Notes: a model not told the origin generated them from the sequence alone. 64,000 nucleotides of DNA from an uncultured Alphaproteobacteria bacterium (GCA_963715715.1 OY970269.1:1688797-1752796); one strand, 5' to 3'; shown: positions 1 through 32,458, counted from the stretch's first letter. Made by a program: numbers and translations.

Positions 1-18
1 CGCCCTGCCGGATCAGAT

Positions 19-1449
19 GTGATGGCGAAAGCGCGCCTGTCTTTCGCCTGCCAGAACTGCGGCGCGCTGACCCAGCGCTGGCAGGGCCGCTGCGAGGCCT
101 GCGGCGAATGGAACACCATCGTCGAGGAGAGCGCCGCCGCCGGCATCGGCGCGCAGGCGGCCGTCGGGGCGCGCAAGGGCCGCGTATTCCATCTTTCGAA
201 GCTGATCGAGCCGGAAAGCCCCGCGCCCCCGCGCATCAAGGCCGGCATCGGCGAACTCGACCGCGTCAGCGGCGGCGGCTTCGTCTCGGGCTCGGTGCTT
301 CTGCTCGGCGGCGAGCCCGGCATCGGCAAATCGACCCTGCTCATTCAGGGCTGCGCCGCGCTCGCCGCGTCCGGCCGGCGCGTCGTCTATATCTCGGGCG
401 AGGAGGCGGTCGATCAGCTGCGGCTCAGGGCGCAGCGGCTCGGCCTTGGCGACAGCCCCGTCGAACTCGCCGCCGAGACCAGCGTCGAGGACATCGTCGC
501 GACGCTCTCGGCCGGCCCGCGCCCGGCCCTCGTCGTGATCGATTCCATCCAGACGATGTGGACGAGCCTCATCGAATCGGCGCCTGGAACGGTGAGCCAG
601 GTGCGCGGCGCGGCGCAGGCGCTGATCCGTTTCGCGAAGACCAGCGGCGCGGCGGTGATCCTCGTCGGCCATGTGACGAAAGACGGTCAGATCGCAGGTC
701 CCCGCGTGGTCGAGCATATGGTCGACGCCGTGCTCTCCTTCGAGGGCGAAGGCGGCCGCGATCTCCGCCTGCTGCGCGCCGTCAAGAACCGCTTTGGCGC
801 GACCGACGAAATTGGCGTCTTCGAAATGACCGGGCGCGGCCTCGCCGAGGTCGAGAATCCGTCCGCGCTGTTCCTCTCCGCGCGCGATCTGGCAGCGCCC
901 GGCGCGGCCGTATTCGCCGGCATGGAGGGCTCGCGCCCGCTCCTCGTCGAGTTTCAGGCCCTTGTCGCGCCAAGCTCGCTCGGCACGCCGCGCCGCGCCG
1001 TCGTCGGCTGGGACGCCGCGCGCCTTTCCATGATCGTCGCCGTGCTCGAGACCCATGCCGGCCTCAAGCTTGGCCAGCACGACATTTATCTCACGGTCGC
1101 CGGCGGCCTCCGGGTCGGCGAGCCCGCCGCCGATCTCGCCGCCGCCGCGGCGCTCATTTCATCGCTGAGCAACATCGCGCTTGGCGCGGACTGCGTGTTC
1201 TTCGGCGAGATCGGCCTCTCCGGCGCGATCCGGCCGGTCTCGCATGGCCTCGCGCGATTGAAGGAGGCGGCGAAGCTCGGCTTTCGCCGGGCGATCATCC
1301 CGCGAGGACCTTCCGAGCGGGGCGCCGCAAAGGAGATCGCCGCGCCGAAAGATCTCGTCCTGCGCCATTGCGGGCACATTTCCGATCTGGTCGCGGAAAT
1401 CGGCGCCGGGCGCAAGCCGCGCGGCGCGGACGCGCGTGCGGATGACTGA
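19..1449 (+). CDS. radA: DNA repair protein RadA/Sms
   Basis: N-terminal C4 zinc finger (CQNCG...WQGRCEACGEWN), Walker A GEPGIGKST, KNRFG motif, Lon-like C-terminal domain. Confidence 0.97.
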   Translation: MMAKARLSFACQNCGALTQRWQGRCEACGEWNTIVEESAAAGIGAQAAVGARKGRVFHLSKLIEPESPAPPRIKAGIGELDRVSGGGFVSGSVLLLGGEPGIGKSTLLIQGCAALAASGRRVVYISGEEAVDQLRLRAQRLGLGDSPVELAAETSVEDIVATLSAGPRPALVVIDSIQTMWTSLIESAPGTVSQVRGAAQALIRFAKTSGAAVILVGHVTKDGQIAGPRVVEHMVDAVLSFEGEGGRDLRLLRAVKNRFGATDEIGVFEMTGRGLAEVENPSALFLSARDLAAPGAAVFAGMEGSRPLLVEFQALVAPSSLGTPRRAVVGWDAARLSMIVAVLETHAGLKLGQHDIYLTVAGGLRVGEPAADLAAAAALISSLSNIALGADCVFFGEIGLSGAIRPVSHGLARLKEAAKLGFRRAIIPRGPSERGAAKEIAAPKDLVLRHCGHISDLVAEIGAGRKPRGADARADD

Positions 1450-20469: not shown

Positions 20470-20524
20470 TTCGGCCTCCTCTTTTGGGGTTGAACCGAGC
20501 CAATGCTTGGCTATAATTAGATTG

Positions 20525-20693: not shown

Positions 20694-22259
20694 ATGTCTG
20701 AGACCGCCACCAACGCGCCGGAACTCACCGTTTCGGAACTCTCGAACGCCCTGAAGCGCACCATCGAGGATCGTTTCGGCTTCGTGCGTCTGCGCGGCGA
20801 AATCTCCAACTACCGCGGTCCGCATTCCTCCGGCCACGCTTATTTCTGTCTGAAGGACGCCGGCGCGCGCATCGACGCCGTGATCTGGAAGAGCGCGCTG
20901 GCGCGCCTGCGGGTCAAGCCCGAGGAAGGCCTTGAGGTTATCGCCACCGGCAAGATCACGACCTATCCCGGCAAATCCACCTATCAGATCATCGTCGAAT
21001 CGATCGAGCCCGCCGGCGTCGGCGCCCTCATGGCGCTGTTCGAGGAGCGCCGCCGCCGCCTCGCCGCGGAGGGCCTCTTTGACGAGGCGCGCAAGCGCGC
21101 CATCCCCTTTTTGCCCGTGCGCATCGGCGTCATCACCTCGCCGACCGGCGCCGTCATCCGCGACATCCTGCATCGGCTCGCCGAACGCTTTCCGCGGCAT
21201 GTGCTGGTCTGGCCGGTGCGGGTTCAGGGCGAGACCTCGGCAGCCGAGCTCGCCGCCGCCATCACCGGCTTCAGCGCGCTGCCGCTAGAAGGTCCGCTGG
21301 CGAGGCCTGACGTGCTCATCGTCGCGCGCGGCGGCGGCTCGCTCGAAGACCTCTGGAGCTTCAACGAGGAGATTGTCGTCCGCGCGGCGGCGGCGAGCCT
21401 CATCCCGCTGATCTCGGCGGTCGGCCATGAAACCGACTGGACATTGATCGACCACGCCGCGGATCTCCGCGCGCCGACGCCGACCGGCGCCGCCGAAAAG
21501 GCAGTGCCGGTGCGGCTCGATCTCCTCGCCAGCCTCGCCGATCTCGGCCGCCGCCATGCCGGCGCCATGCTGCGCCTGATCGAGCGCCGCCGGTCTGACG
21601 CGCGCGCGCTGTTCCGCGCGCTGCCCGGCCCCGAAGACATCCTCGCCCTGCCCCGCCAGCGCATCGACGTCGCCGCCCGCCATCTGGGCAACGCCATTCA
21701 GCGCCGGCAGGACGGCAGCCGCATCGCTTTGGCGCGCGCAGCGCAGCGCCTCTCGCGGCAGTCTCCCCAGGCAAGGTTGGGCCGCGCATCGGAAAGGCTG
21801 CACGCCTGCGAAGCGCGCATGAAGCGCGCCCTCTTCACCGCCGCCGAACGGCGCGGCGAGAGGATCGCGGGCCTCGGCCGCCGCCTCGTCAATGCGCGGC
21901 TCGTCCACGTCCGCATGGAGCGCGAGCGCATCGCAACCTGCCGGCATCGCCTCGAAGTCCTCGACGCGCGCATGCGGCAGGCCGCGCGGGCGGAGATCGC
22001 ATCGCGCCGCGCGGGCCTGCGCGGTCTCGATCAGCTGCTCGCCAGCCTTGGCTACAAAAACGTGCTCGCGCGCGGCTTCGCCCTGGTGCGCGACGCCGAC
22101 GACAAGCCCATTCGGCGGGCAGCGGAAGTGATCGACGGCGAGCGTCTCGACATCGAATTCGCCGACGGCCGGAGGAGCGCGATCGCCGGCGCCGCCGAGA
22201 CGAAGAAGCCATCTCCCAAAAGGGCTCTGAAAAAGCGCGAACAGGGCTCGCTGTTTTAG
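20694..22259 (+). CDS. xseA: Exodeoxyribonuclease VII large subunit
   Basis: VRLRGEISN, SGHAYF, GVITSPTGAVIRD, RGGGSLEDLWSFNEE, GHETD, TPTGAAE. Confidence 0.96.
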   Translation: MSETATNAPELTVSELSNALKRTIEDRFGFVRLRGEISNYRGPHSSGHAYFCLKDAGARIDAVIWKSALARLRVKPEEGLEVIATGKITTYPGKSTYQIIVESIEPAGVGALMALFEERRRRLAAEGLFDEARKRAIPFLPVRIGVITSPTGAVIRDILHRLAERFPRHVLVWPVRVQGETSAAELAAAITGFSALPLEGPLARPDVLIVARGGGSLEDLWSFNEEIVVRAAAASLIPLISAVGHETDWTLIDHAADLRAPTPTGAAEKAVPVRLDLLASLADLGRRHAGAMLRLIERRRSDARALFRALPGPEDILALPRQRIDVAARHLGNAIQRRQDGSRIALARAAQRLSRQSPQARLGRASERLHACEARMKRALFTAAERRGERIAGLGRRLVNARLVHVRMERERIATCRHRLEVLDARMRQAARAEIASRRAGLRGLDQLLASLGYKNVLARGFALVRDADDKPIRRAAEVIDGERLDIEFADGRRSAIAGAAETKKPSPKRALKKREQGSLF

Positions 22260-22297
22260 GCTTCGATCAGAGAGCGCAGCGTCTCATGGAGGGTTTC

Positions 22298-22807
22298 ATG
22301 CCGGTCACCCAACCGCCCGATCCGTACCAAAACTTCAAGTTTCGCCTGAAGTGGGACGGTCGCTACGTCGCCGGCGTCTCGAAGGTTAGCGCGCTGAAGC
22401 GAACGACCGAGGTCGTGGAGCATCGCGAGGGTAGCGATCCGTCGACATCGCGCAAATCGCCCGGCCGTACGCAATACGAATCGATTACGCTGGAGCGCGG
22501 CGTCACCGAGGACGCCGCATTCGAGCAATGGGCGAACAAGGTGTGGACGCTCGGCGCGGCGCTCGGCTCCGAAGTGTCGCTCGCCGATTTTCGCAAGGAT
22601 ATATTTCTCGAACTCTACAATGACGCGGGGCAGCTCGTGCGCGCCTACAAGATTTACCAGTGCTGGCCGTCGGCGTTTCAGGCGCTGCCCGATCTCGACG
22701 CCGACGGCGGCGCCGTCGCCATAGAGGCGCTGGTGCTTGAGAATGAGGGCTGGGAGCGAGATGCTTCGGTCGTCCCGCCGCCGCCGCCCAGCTTCGACAC
22801 GCCTTAG
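22298..22807 (+). CDS. Phage-tail-like tube protein (T4 gp19 / Afp1-Pvc1 family of contractile injection systems)
   Basis: DPYQNFKFRL, KSPGRTQYESITLERGV, FRKDIFLELYN, CWPS, VAIEALVLENEG; RBS GGAGGG. Confidence 0.85.
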   Translation: MPVTQPPDPYQNFKFRLKWDGRYVAGVSKVSALKRTTEVVEHREGSDPSTSRKSPGRTQYESITLERGVTEDAAFEQWANKVWTLGAALGSEVSLADFRKDIFLELYNDAGQLVRAYKIYQCWPSAFQALPDLDADGGAVAIEALVLENEGWERDASVVPPPPPSFDTP

Positions 22808-22824
22808 GTCAGGGACTCGAAAAC

Positions 22825-23332
22825 ATGAGCGGCCAACATTACGGCAAATATCGCGGCACGGTGTTGAACAATGTCGATCCCATCGGCCGTGGCCGCATAC
22901 AGGCCGAAGTCGCCGACGTGGGCATGCTTCCAGGCGCATGGGCCGAGGCCTGCGCGCCGCTCGCCGGCGTGCAAAGCGGAGTTCTGGCTCGTGCCGCAGA
23001 TCGGCGCCGGCGTCTGGATAGAGTTCGAGCGCGGCGATCCCGATTATCCGATCTGGTCCGGCTGCCGCTGGGCCTCCGCGGCAGACGTTCCCACACTCGC
23101 GGCGGCCGGTTCGGCGCCAAGCGCGGCGATCGTGCTGCAGACGCCGGGCGGGGCGGCTTTGATGCTGTCCGACGCACCGGGCGCCACGGGCGGCATCCTG
23201 CTGCAAACCGCGGACGGCGCAATGATCTCGATCAGCGACGCCGGCATCTCGATCGCCAACGGCAAAGGCGCCGTCATCGCGCTGATTGGCCCGACGGTCG
23301 ACGTCAACAACGGCGCCTGGACGGTCGCCTGA
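22825..23332 (+). CDS. Baseplate assembly protein V / short gp5-VgrG-like spike (one apparent indel near 22985)
   Basis: YGKYRGTVLNNVDPIGRGRIQAEV, W(L)VPQIGAGVWIEFERGDPDYPIWSG OB-fold motifs, followed by beta-helix-like repeats ending VDVNNGA. Confidence 0.8.
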
Positions 23333-23383
23333 ACTTGAAATGACGGACGCCATATCAAATGATGGACGTCATAGGGCTGTCGT

Positions 23384-24223
23384 TCAGGCGAAGACGAGCG
23401 GCATCGGCTCAAGGCTCACCGCGTCGATACCAAACCGGCGCAGGGCCGCGCGCAGCTTTGCGCCCGGCATTTCCGAACCCGTGAAGACCGCCTGCGCCAA
23501 TCGTACCTGATCGCCTCCGCGACCGGTGGGAAAGCCAATCTGGTCGCTCAAAACCCGATCGGTCCGCCGCGCGATGGCCGGCGCGGGGTCGATCCATGCC
23601 ACCGGCCAGGGCGCGAGGCGCTTCAATTGGTCGATCAGCAATGGATAATGCGTGCAGGCGAGAACAATGCAGTCGGTCCGGCGGCCGTCCGATTCGACGA
23701 ACGCGGCGCCTGTTTCACGTGAAACACCCTCATCCGCCGGCGCCGCGCCCTGCATGAAATCCTCGGCGAGACTCGCCAGCCGGGTCGAGCCGACCAGCGT
23801 CACGCTGCAATCGGCGGCGTAGGCGCGCACGAGATCGCGGGTATAATCGCGTGCAACCGTTCCGGGCGTCGCCAGCACCGAGATCATCTTTGTGTGCGAT
23901 TGAATTGCGGCCGGTTTAATTGCGGGCACGGTGCCAACGAAGGGCAGCTTCGGAAACGCCGCGCGCAGATGCGGCAAAACCAGTGTCGAAGCCGTATTGC
24001 AGGCGATCACGGCGATGTCGGGCGCATGCTTCTCGATCAGCCGCTCGATGACCGATAGCACGCGCGGGGCGAGCGCGGTCTCCGGCAGGGCGCCATAGGG
24101 AAAGCCCGCCCCGTCGGCGGCGTAGACGAATTCCGCGTCCGGCCGCAGCCGCGCCACTTCGGCGAAGACGGTGAGCCCGCCAAGCCCCGAGTCGAACACG
24201 AGAATTTTCGGCGCACGCGACAT
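23384..24223 (-). CDS. murI: Glutamate racemase
   Basis: FDSGLGGLTV, FPYG, IACNTAS, LACTHYP. Confidence 0.96.
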   Translation of the reverse strand: MSRAPKILVFDSGLGGLTVFAEVARLRPDAEFVYAADGAGFPYGALPETALAPRVLSVIERLIEKHAPDIAVIACNTASTLVLPHLRAAFPKLPFVGTVPAIKPAAIQSHTKMISVLATPGTVARDYTRDLVRAYAADCSVTLVGSTRLASLAEDFMQGAAPADEGVSRETGAAFVESDGRRTDCIVLACTHYPLLIDQLKRLAPWPVAWIDPAPAIARRTDRVLSDQIGFPTGRGGDQVRLAQAVFTGSEMPGAKLRAALRRFGIDAVSLEPMPLVFA

Positions 24224-31230: not shown

Positions 31231-32458
31231 ATGCCGCCGGGCCCGGGCTCACCCTTCCGCGACAGGGCCGCGCATCCCCTCGCCGGCGTGACCGTGCTGC
31301 AGATCGTTCCCGACCTTGAGCCGGGCGGCGTCGCGCTCGCCGCGATCGGCACAGCCGCCGCCTTGAGCCGCGCCGGCGCCATCGCGCTGATCGCCAGCCG
31401 CGGCGGCCCGCTGGTCAGCGAACTGCAGGCGCGCGGCGGCCTTTTCACGCCCTTCCCGGCGCATGCGCGAAATCCGGTCAGCATGGCGATGAACATTCGC
31501 CGTCTCGCCCAGCTCATCAAAGCCGAGCGCGTCGACATCGTCCACGCCCGATCGCGCGCCCCGGCCTGGGTCGCCTTCGGCGCGACCCGCCTCACGAAAA
31601 CGCCGTTCGTCACCAGTTTCCGCGGCAGCTACGCACAGGGGGGGCCTCTGGCCCTTCGCTATAACTCGATCATGGCGCGCGGCGACGTCATCATCGCCGA
31701 TTTCGGCCTTTACCGCCGGCGAGATCGCGCGGCTCTTTCCGGCCGCGCGGGAAAAGATTCATATCGTGGTCGGCGGCGTCGATTGCCGTCTCTTCGCCCC
31801 GAAAGCCGTGGGGCCGGCCCGCGTTCAGGCCATCCGACGCCTTTGGGGCGCGGCGCAGGACGAGCGCGTCGTCTATTTCGTGCCGGCGGGTCGCGCCGCC
31901 CGCGCCAGCGCCATTCTGATCGAGGCCGTACAGCGCCTGGCCGAACAGCCCGACTCGGGCTCCGCCCTCGACGGAACGAAATTCGTCATCGCTTGCGAGG
32001 AAGCTGGCGGCGCAGGCGCGCGGGAAATTGAAGCCGCGATCACAAAAGCCGGCCTGCAACAACTCATGCGAACGTCCGCGACAAGTCCTGACCGACCGGC
32101 CGCGCTGCTCGCCGCCGCCGTCGTGGTCGCATTGCCGGCGGAGCCGCGGTCGCTCGCGGGACTCGCGCTTGAGGCCCAGGCGATGGGCGCGCCGGTGATC
32201 GTCGCCGAGGCTGGCGCCGCCTCCGAAACGGTGCTCGCGCCGCCCGACGTCGACGATTCCGCGCGTACGGGGTGGCGGACGGCGCCGGGCGCCGGGCCAT
32301 TCGCAGAGGCGCTGCGCGCGGCCCTGAGCCTTGGCGCGACTGCGCGCGACCGGCTTTCGCTTCGCGCGCGCGCGCATGTCGAGGCGGCCTTCTCGATCGA
32401 GCAGACGTGGACGCAGACTCTCGCTGCCTATACGGCGGCGCGCGCCGCTGCGCGTTAA
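31231..32458 (+). CDS. Glycosyltransferase family 4 (one apparent +1 indel near 31700)
   Basis: LQIVPDL..GGV, DIVHARSRAPAW, YNSIMARGD, LEAQAMGAPVIV; split across two frames. Confidence 0.82.

Follow-up and report, generated by a model that had tools for sequence, protein, structure and literature searches.

What are two genes for the inner needle of a contractile injection system (CIS) doing on a chromosome where no other part of such a machine is found? The question is raised by positions 22298 to 23332 of a 64,000-nucleotide stretch of DNA (the window, below) from an uncultured Alphaproteobacteria bacterium (GCA_963715715.1 OY970269.1:1688797-1752796), where a gene for a gp19-type tube protein and a gene for a short gpV/gp5-type spike protein lie between the housekeeping genes xseA and murI. 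Somewhat better than even, in our judgment, is the explanation that the pair is a domesticated, sheath-independent tube-plus-spike remnant of a CIS that has been kept by selection. Since the genomes that carry it are without a sheath, baseplate, cap, hub, initiator, or ATPase, the pair cannot inject and probably does something else. The genes and their flanks are as follows, in window coordinates (aa, amino acids).

22298-22807, plus strand: gp19/Afp1-type inner-tube gene, intact, 169 aa plus stop (PF06841 Phage_T4_gp19, E 4.1e-42)
22825-23332, plus strand: spike gene, whole span, ~169 aa gpV/gp5-type OB fold over two frames (PF04717 Phage_base_V)
22825-22981, plus strand: spike 5' segment, first frame, N-terminal half of the OB fold (PF04717 profile positions 1-46, E 7.8e-5)
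22985-23332, plus strand: spike 3' segment, second frame, including the stop (PF04717 profile positions 43-75, E 1.2e-7)
22288-22293, plus strand: Shine-Dalgarno-like GGAGGG, read directly from the sequence, with the tube ATG 4 nt further on
20694-22259, plus strand: xseA (exonuclease VII large subunit), upstream housekeeping flank (PF02601, E 6e-100; also PF13742)
23384-24223, minus strand: murI (glutamate racemase), convergent downstream flank (PF01177, E 2.2e-18)

The pair encodes a CIS inner tube and a short spike

The tube protein matches PF06841 with 143.6 bits (curated cut-off, 28.2) over profile positions 2 to 134 of 134, and it matches a hidden Markov model (HMM) specific to its own CIS lineage with an E value of 5.6e-86. 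Among the solved CIS tubes it is related to those of AlgoCIS (7adz; 1.2e-16) and Anabaena (All3324 in 7b5h; 6.6e-16), with weaker matches to 6j0b (Pvc1; 6.6e-5) and 6rao (Afp1; 8.5e-5). The spike gene begins 17 bp after the tube stop codon, and its product matches the lineage-specific spike HMM with an E value of 1.5e-45. The PF04717 match is split over two frames in the window (1-46 and 43-75) and is whole in the orthologues, that of genome G001 being a single 169-aa open reading frame (ORF) with a full match (E 1.3e-19). The 5' segment is 68 to 75% identical to the orthologues, and the 3' segment comprises the C-terminal half of the OB fold together with a Gly/Ala/Ile-rich C-terminal stretch, which had no match in domain searches and which we take to be possibly beta-helix-like, by comparison with gp5 and gpV. 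The G+C content of third codon positions (GC3) is 0.79 for the tube, 0.73 to 0.87 for the spike, and 0.76 to 0.87 for the neighbors, so codon use is host-like. These results bear out a first-pass annotation of the window, which had described an intact gp19-type tube gene with host-like codons and a short gp5/VgrG OB-fold spike between xseA and murI. It had also given each gene a ribosome-binding site (RBS), which holds for the tube (GGAGGG) and only partly for the spike, where the site is weak in the window (AGGGA) although strong in the relatives.

Other parts of the machine are missing from the whole genome

The genome was searched as one contig of 3,687,845 bp. Its only gp19 match is the window tube, and Base_V occurs only at the window spike. 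Across the whole genome, PF04984 (Phage_sheath_1) had no match at an E value of ≤0.1, and neither PF04965 (GPW_gp25) nor VipB/TssC, the sheath of type VI secretion systems (T6SS), was found. The Pfam sheath scan alone is insensitive, having missed the fragmented sheaths of genomes G011 and G034, which were recovered by tblastn; for this reason, tblastn with 14 complete loci and lineage-specific HMMs were added. When every ORF of the 14 loci was compared with the genome, the only matches were to the tube, the spike, and generic AAA proteins, and the 14 sheaths had no match. The HMMs, built from up to 90 homologues and run on all six-frame ORFs of the genome, covered the sheath, T4_baseplate/DUF6760, the Pvc16 cap, WHD-AAA, CIS_tube, a 120-aa protein, a 379-aa hub, the spike, a PAAR-like protein, gp25, and a J-like protein. 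For structural parts beyond the tube and spike they found nothing significant in the genome, with mostly no match at an E value of ≤10. The models for the J-like protein and two small unnamed ORFs gave chance-level matches only (E 0.05 to 0.4), and the WHD-AAA model found generic AAA proteins elsewhere in the genome, the best of them (2.1e-17, at 2746633-2748399) through the AAA domain only.

With no match to a sheath, gp25, J-like wedge, hub, tube initiator, cap, or Afp15-type AAA ATPase, the pair does not belong to a CIS or extracellular CIS (eCIS) locus, and with two genes it falls short of the ten core genes by which eCIS loci have been defined (PMC8213781). The genomes of its nearest relatives, G001 and G030, are likewise without other CIS parts. 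The absence of a sheath, wedge, PAAR protein, and cap had first been remarked for the surroundings of the pair, with the suggestion that eCIS and T6SS sheath and baseplate genes be sought in the rest of the genome; by Pfam, tblastn, and lineage HMMs, none was found there, and the absence is genome-wide.

Both genes show the signature of purifying selection

Ratios of nonsynonymous to synonymous substitution (dN/dS), which are pairwise NG86 estimates at dS values of 0.4 to 1.0, were obtained for the window against G001 and G030.

Tube: 0.08-0.14
Spike (two segments): 0.15-0.40
xseA: 0.22-0.24
murI: 0.12-0.30
pdxK: 0.16-0.18

Among the assemblies in which the genes are intact (dS 0.2 to 0.7), the ratio was 0.06 to 0.12 for the tube, 0.16 to 0.32 for the spike, and 0.12 to 0.21 for murI. 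Because these ratios are far below 1 and on a par with those of murI and xseA, both the tube and the spike evolve as functional coding sequences under purifying selection. The canonical tubes of complete loci have ratios of 0.016 to 0.145.

The tube has nonetheless lost residues that complete machines keep. In a tree of 89 tubes, the backbone of which is unresolved, the window clade has 100% support and a stem branch of 0.29, versus 0.02 to 0.11 for most inner branches. At the 114 alignment columns that are at least 90% conserved in 77 canonical tubes, the canonical tubes deviate at a median of 1 column (maximum, 12) and the members of the window clade at 11 to 16. In the window tube, 16 of the 114 columns are altered, and residues invariant in complete machines are not retained. 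Among the altered positions of the window clade are E126, K146, and E160, at which canonical tubes are 100% conserved. Position N138 is altered in all four orphan lineages and K146 in two of the four. Rapid change at positions that are otherwise invariant, with purifying selection afterwards, would be consistent with the loss of partner contacts and the retention of the fold and of some function.

The pair is inherited at a junction that collects cargo

The pair adjoins murI in at least seven assemblies (the window, G001, G030, L030, L149, L150, and L151), in most of which xseA is adjacent as well; the first-pass annotation had proposed this check of the xseA-tube-spike-murI arrangement. On contigs L149 to L151 the order is tube (171 aa), spike (169 aa), murI, with xseA upstream in two of the three. 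G001, L149, and L151 have intact copies of both genes, and L150 has one of the spike. Tube and spike remain side by side in all orthologues, including L149, with its altered upstream context. What varies is a small neighbor: a DUF2867 gene stands between the spike and murI in G030 and a 114-aa ORF in L151, and, DUF2867 apart, the neighbors of orthologous pairs have no Pfam match, with no toxin or CIS domain among them. Shared synteny in seven assemblies also speaks against the pair being strain-specific or the product of a chimeric assembly, both of which had been named beforehand among the refuting findings.

By xseA similarity, the nearest relatives of the window genome are G001 and G030, whose XseA orthologues are 80 to 82% identical in amino acid sequence. 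In more distant members of the genus (G063, G006, G026, and G013), xseA and murI are directly convergent, 17 to 30 bp apart, the empty, ancestral form of the junction. In the next-closest species, a gene for Hsp20 (G018 and G002), thioredoxin (G008), or a glyoxalase-like protein (G064) fills the gap, and no relics of a tube or spike were found in the xseA-murI gaps of sister species. The junction sites are these.

22260-23383: the junction in the window
L119 (G018), L120 (G008), L126 (G002), and L144 (G064): the junction in the next-closest species
L019, 8610-9188: a further junction site

In this genus the convergent xseA/murI junction is a cargo hotspot, which in one clade is taken up by the tube-spike pair.

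The spike frameshift and the possibility of decay

A DNA alignment of the spike gene from three species places one extra T at 22982/22983, where the window reads GGAGTTCTGG and the relatives read GGAG-TCTAT. The window has TT and all six orthologues have a single T, and this one base shifts the spike frame. Deleting one T restores GAGTC, a GANTC site, and GANTC is the CcrM methylation motif of Alphaproteobacteria. At least four cases of a T inserted into GANTC occur in the window (22982, 31702, 34688, and, on the minus strand, 20285), which suggests that they are long-read basecalling errors at methylated sites. Wholesale miscalling of the motif was ruled out: GANTC density is ~20 to 25% below that of the relatives, so that a fraction of the sites is affected. 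In the ~30 kb that can be aligned to both relatives, the window assembly has 24 private indels of a length that is not a multiple of three, all of them contradicted by both, including two in infC (33050 and 33122), three in one gene (2891, 2943, and 2999), one at 31702, and two in another gene (34485 and 34688). A scan for frameshifts on stop-to-stop ORFs was confounded by the conserved off-frame ORFs typical of high-GC DNA; the scan was redone with a GC3 filter and then DNA-level indel calling backed by both relatives. The private single-base indels of the window are mostly insertions, and they disrupt conserved genes. The genome is 91% complete even though the contig is closed, which fits an error-rich assembly.

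The spike of G030 contains two other single-base insertions, and several housekeeping genes of that assembly are frameshifted too; L151, which is near-identical to G030 and comes from another data set, has neither insertion. The G001 spike is read through in one frame, and intact spikes of 169 aa are present in G001, L149, L150, L151, and P0001 to P0006; the protein database holds six 169-aa orthologues at 79 to 83% identity and more at 68 to 69%. A programmed frameshift was ruled out, as the orthologues stay in one frame. On these alignments, the frameshift in the window spike is most likely an assembly error and not biology, and because the assemblies are error-rich, a frameshift alone is no sign of decay. 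The apparent pseudogene in the window is most likely a long-read basecalling artifact at a methylation motif, and any other pseudogene call in this genome warrants the same caution.

These observations bear directly on the alternative that survives best, although we regard it as unlikely: that the pair is a nonfunctional relic, all that is left of a degraded CIS island and itself bound for loss, with real frameshifts in the window and G030. The frameshifts themselves (one in the window spike and two in that of G030) would fit such a relic, as would the long stem branch and lost invariant residues of the tube and the existence in the genus of degraded CIS loci with a fragmented sheath or tube (G011 and G034). 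However, dN/dS is not near 1, as the first-pass annotation would have expected of a decaying remnant, but 0.06 to 0.14 for the tube and 0.16 to 0.32 for the spike at dS values of 0.4 to 1.0, as low as for murI and xseA. Independent assemblies hold the pair intact (both genes in G001, L149, and L151; the spike in L150), the near-identical counterpart of G030 is free of both of its insertions, and the two broken assemblies are frameshifted in housekeeping genes as well. The decaying remnant proposed in the first-pass annotation is contradicted by the low ratios, the intact pairs, and the error-type indel.

The possibility of a spare-parts cassette for a machine elsewhere

Tube and spike genes apart from their apparatus are familiar from T6SS, in which orphan hcp-vgrG islands are common, are thought to serve the resident full T6SS, and usually come with effectors (PMC13098142). 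The window pair resembles these islands in that tube and spike genes lie away from any main apparatus in a small, horizontally mobile module, such as the hcp-vgrG(-PAAR) islands are. However, the islands consist of Hcp and VgrG families with effector-immunity genes, whereas the window pair is PF06841 plus a protein with PF04717 only; they accompany a resident T6SS, whereas the window genome is without VipB/TssC and has no effector beside the pair. The pair is thus like the known orphan tube-spike islands but of eCIS type and without a parent machine.

By this analogy, the pair could be a satellite cassette, its products used in trans by a complete CIS on a plasmid or other replicon, an option raised in the first-pass annotation. 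Besides the T6SS precedent (PMC13098142), a sister metagenome-assembled genome (MAG), G065, carries a sheath gene by itself elsewhere on the chromosome, the binning of MAGs often loses plasmids, and purifying selection fits a working part. Against this, the 3.69-Mb contig is without a sheath, cap, initiator, hub, PAAR, gp25, J-like protein, or TssC; G001 and G030 are equally without CIS parts; and the G065 sheath is the sole CIS gene in 40 kb. The pair has no effector or immunity gene beside it, the complete loci of the lineage already possess a tube and spike of their own, and the orphan tube is without residues that are invariant in working machines. With the whole contig devoid of any other CIS or T6SS part, the satellite option is unsupported here, and we rank it below the relic, as improbable.

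Parent lineage and the structural case against a minimal needle

The window tube is 70 to 77% identical to the tubes of loci in Acidobacteriota, Chloroflexota, Actinomycetota, Pseudomonadota, and other phyla. In 71 of the 76 such loci with enough flanking sequence, the order is sheath, tube, T4_baseplate/DUF6760, Pvc16_N, WHD, AAA, eCIS_core, with the short spike 7.7 to 10 kb further downstream. Two fully annotated loci continue with the eCIS_core (DUF4157) protein, CIS_tube, a small protein, a hub candidate of 373 to 379 aa, a 171-aa spike, a PAAR-like protein, gp25, and J-like wedge proteins. The tube is thus gene 2 and the spike gene 12 of an operon of 17 or more genes, with ~9.8 kb and nine genes between them, whereas the window juxtaposes these two, 17 bp apart, and keeps nothing else of the operon. 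Window and complete loci share the Pfam families and the ~170-aa spike format, and the spikes are 52 to 67% identical; the short format is normal for the lineage and is no truncation. Complete loci include those of Ktedonobacter racemifer, Bradyrhizobium spp., Pseudomonas fluorescens PS833, Rhodanobacter, Streptomyces triculaminicus, and G026, the last of which is in the same genus as the window genome. The parent lineage is probably the CIS clade of Streptomyces davawensis (Nagakubo 2024, PMC11126660), an assignment set by architecture and taxon spread rather than by sequence comparison. Sheaths or tubes in several frames occur in the CIS loci L021 (G011) and L027 (G034), which are either degrading or affected by assembly errors.

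Could the two proteins form a needle by themselves, the tube and spike coassembling into a capped tube or filament without a sheath or baseplate? The adjacency of the two genes in every orthologue, even in the altered upstream context of L149, would suit such a particle, and independent orphan modules in Acidobacteriaceae keep inner-needle parts (a tube and a CIS_tube gene). The solved eCIS and thylakoid CIS (tCIS) needles, namely, AlgoCIS (7adz), the Anabaena tCIS (7b5h), PVC (6j0b), and Afp (6rao), are informative on this point. The window tube aligns to Alg1, All3324, Pvc1, and Afp1, with identities of both window genes far below those to the complete CIS lineage. In the solved needles, however, the spike includes a gp27-like adaptor and the tube is joined through initiators, and the window pair has neither; the spike is the OB part only, aligning to just residues 385 to 462 of All3320, the Anabaena spike of 589 aa. 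The only link from tube to spike in AlgoCIS is through the initiators Alg5 and Alg7, the step from three-fold to six-fold symmetry is made by the gp27-like domain of Alg8, and particles no longer assemble when the small plug Alg6 is lost (PMC8894135). In the lineage of the window pair, the genes between the tube and the short spike, which are nine genes apart, include CIS_tube, of the initiator type by Pfam, and, separately, one for a presumed hub of 373 to 379 aa (no Pfam match), and lineage HMMs found no hub, initiator, or tape-measure-like gene in the window genome. A short OB-fold spike separate from its hub protein is also seen in phage P2 gpV (Pfam Phage_base_V). P2 gpV acts on the gpD hub inside a full baseplate, whereas the window genome has no match to a hub or baseplate. 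By analogy with these structures, a minimal tube-spike particle is unlikely, and we give it less weight than the satellite cassette.

That the pair is foreign to this chromosomal place, through chimeric assembly or contamination, is hardly credible even for an error-rich assembly, as six further independent assemblies show these junctions too and codon use is host-like.

A proposed domesticated remnant and the points that weigh against it

If the pair is a domesticated remnant, it would stem from a single acquisition, in the ancestor shared by a small clade of this alphaproteobacterial genus, at the point where xseA and murI converge, and would have been inherited vertically thereafter, with only the inner-tube and short gpV/gp5-like spike genes retained from the CIS. 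The tube would still fold and would probably still form hexameric Hcp-like rings or short stacks, and the spike would probably still be an OB-fold trimer, each perhaps with a sheath-independent cellular job. The loss of tube residues that are invariant in complete machines is consistent with the loss of partner contacts. Transcription would probably start at a weak local promoter or continue from xseA by read-through, and translation would proceed from the RBS of each gene.

Several points weigh against the pair being a domesticated remnant. The selection estimates are pairwise, at dS values of up to 1.0. Constraint on the tube is perhaps about twofold looser than is typical of complete machines, and the higher dN/dS of the tube together with its lost invariant residues could reflect a slow relaxation toward loss. 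The genome may be a metagenome-derived chromosome, in which case a plasmid-borne CIS could have been missed. Were the extra T real, the spike of this strain would be dead. In addition, a promoter scan found no promoter belonging to the pair itself, the sole sigma-70-like match upstream of it on the plus strand being at 20490-20517, ahead of xseA.

Orphan CIS parts in other lineages

Of the 12 tube-bearing species of the genus, 5 are without any sheath (the window genome, G000, and G001, G030, G004, and G031). G004, a closed genome, and G031 have a lone tube at another, unrelated locus (L023, 9819-10334, and L024, 9738-10304). The G004 tube is intact at 171 aa in a genome without a spike or sheath, and the G004 and G031 tubes have a stem branch of 0.58 and 19 to 28 changes at conserved columns. 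A Pseudolabrys MAG has a lone tube (L034, 9968-10483) that is 77% identical to that of the window and is the only gp19 protein there, with no sheath found; its neighbors are a 397-aa ORF and a His-rich 166-aa ORF without a Pfam match. In three Acidobacteriaceae MAGs, a tube gene and a CIS_tube-type gene lie between housekeeping genes (L031, 10001-11078; L032, 10001-11451; and L090, 10001-11134). The CIS_tube-type gene matches the lineage HMM at 1e-64 to 1e-67 and is not adjacent to the tube in complete loci, and these MAGs have further gp19 copies elsewhere in their genomes. The lone sheath gene of G065, a MAG that shares the tube-spike pair, is at G065:C5:16019-17598 (L146), and no further CIS gene lies within 40 kb of it. 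The sheath gene is split over two frames, possibly because of an assembly error, and the syntenic site of the window genome (2540429-2543292) has no sheath and instead a 607-aa carboxylesterase-like ORF.

We tentatively propose, with less confidence than we place in the domestication of the window pair, that inner-needle parts of CIS have been repeatedly domesticated as stand-alone, sheath-less modules that selection maintains for cellular roles unrelated to injection. If so, the versions would be the tube alone, the tube plus spike, and the tube plus tube initiator, and possible roles would include those of ring-shaped scaffolds or chaperones, or of stress-related cargo. We would then be seeing the window pair not long after its departure from a complete machine, given the 70 to 77% identity of its tube to working tubes, and the pair would be a convenient entry point to the role of such stand-alone proteins.

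Two parts that together are unable to build the known machine persist under purifying selection in genomes without any other part. A large survey of eCIS required at least ten core genes per locus (Geller 2021, PMC8213781), and because of that requirement isolated CIS parts are filtered out of surveys. Searched for such terms, the text of that survey and of an eCIS review (PMC10598620) contains no mention of orphan or partial loci, and literature searches turned up no account of conserved orphan genes for an eCIS tube or spike. A cellular function of the pair, if it has one, would add another exaptation of the phage-tail tube fold to those of phage tails, T6SS, and eCIS. The case is a tractable one, with two small genes and a genus in which cultured relatives probably exist.

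Other features of the locus

An imperfect inverted repeat (ATGACGGACGCCAT...ATGGACGTCAT) occupies 23340-23372 of the window, in the interval that separates the stop codons of the spike gene and murI. It is possibly a bidirectional terminator, and a simple terminator scan did not report it. An antisense ORF of 365 aa (22256-23353, minus strand) spans the whole pair. It was ruled out as a gene and is a high-GC artifact, since the Pfam matches, the GC3 pattern, and the low dN/dS all point to the plus strand.

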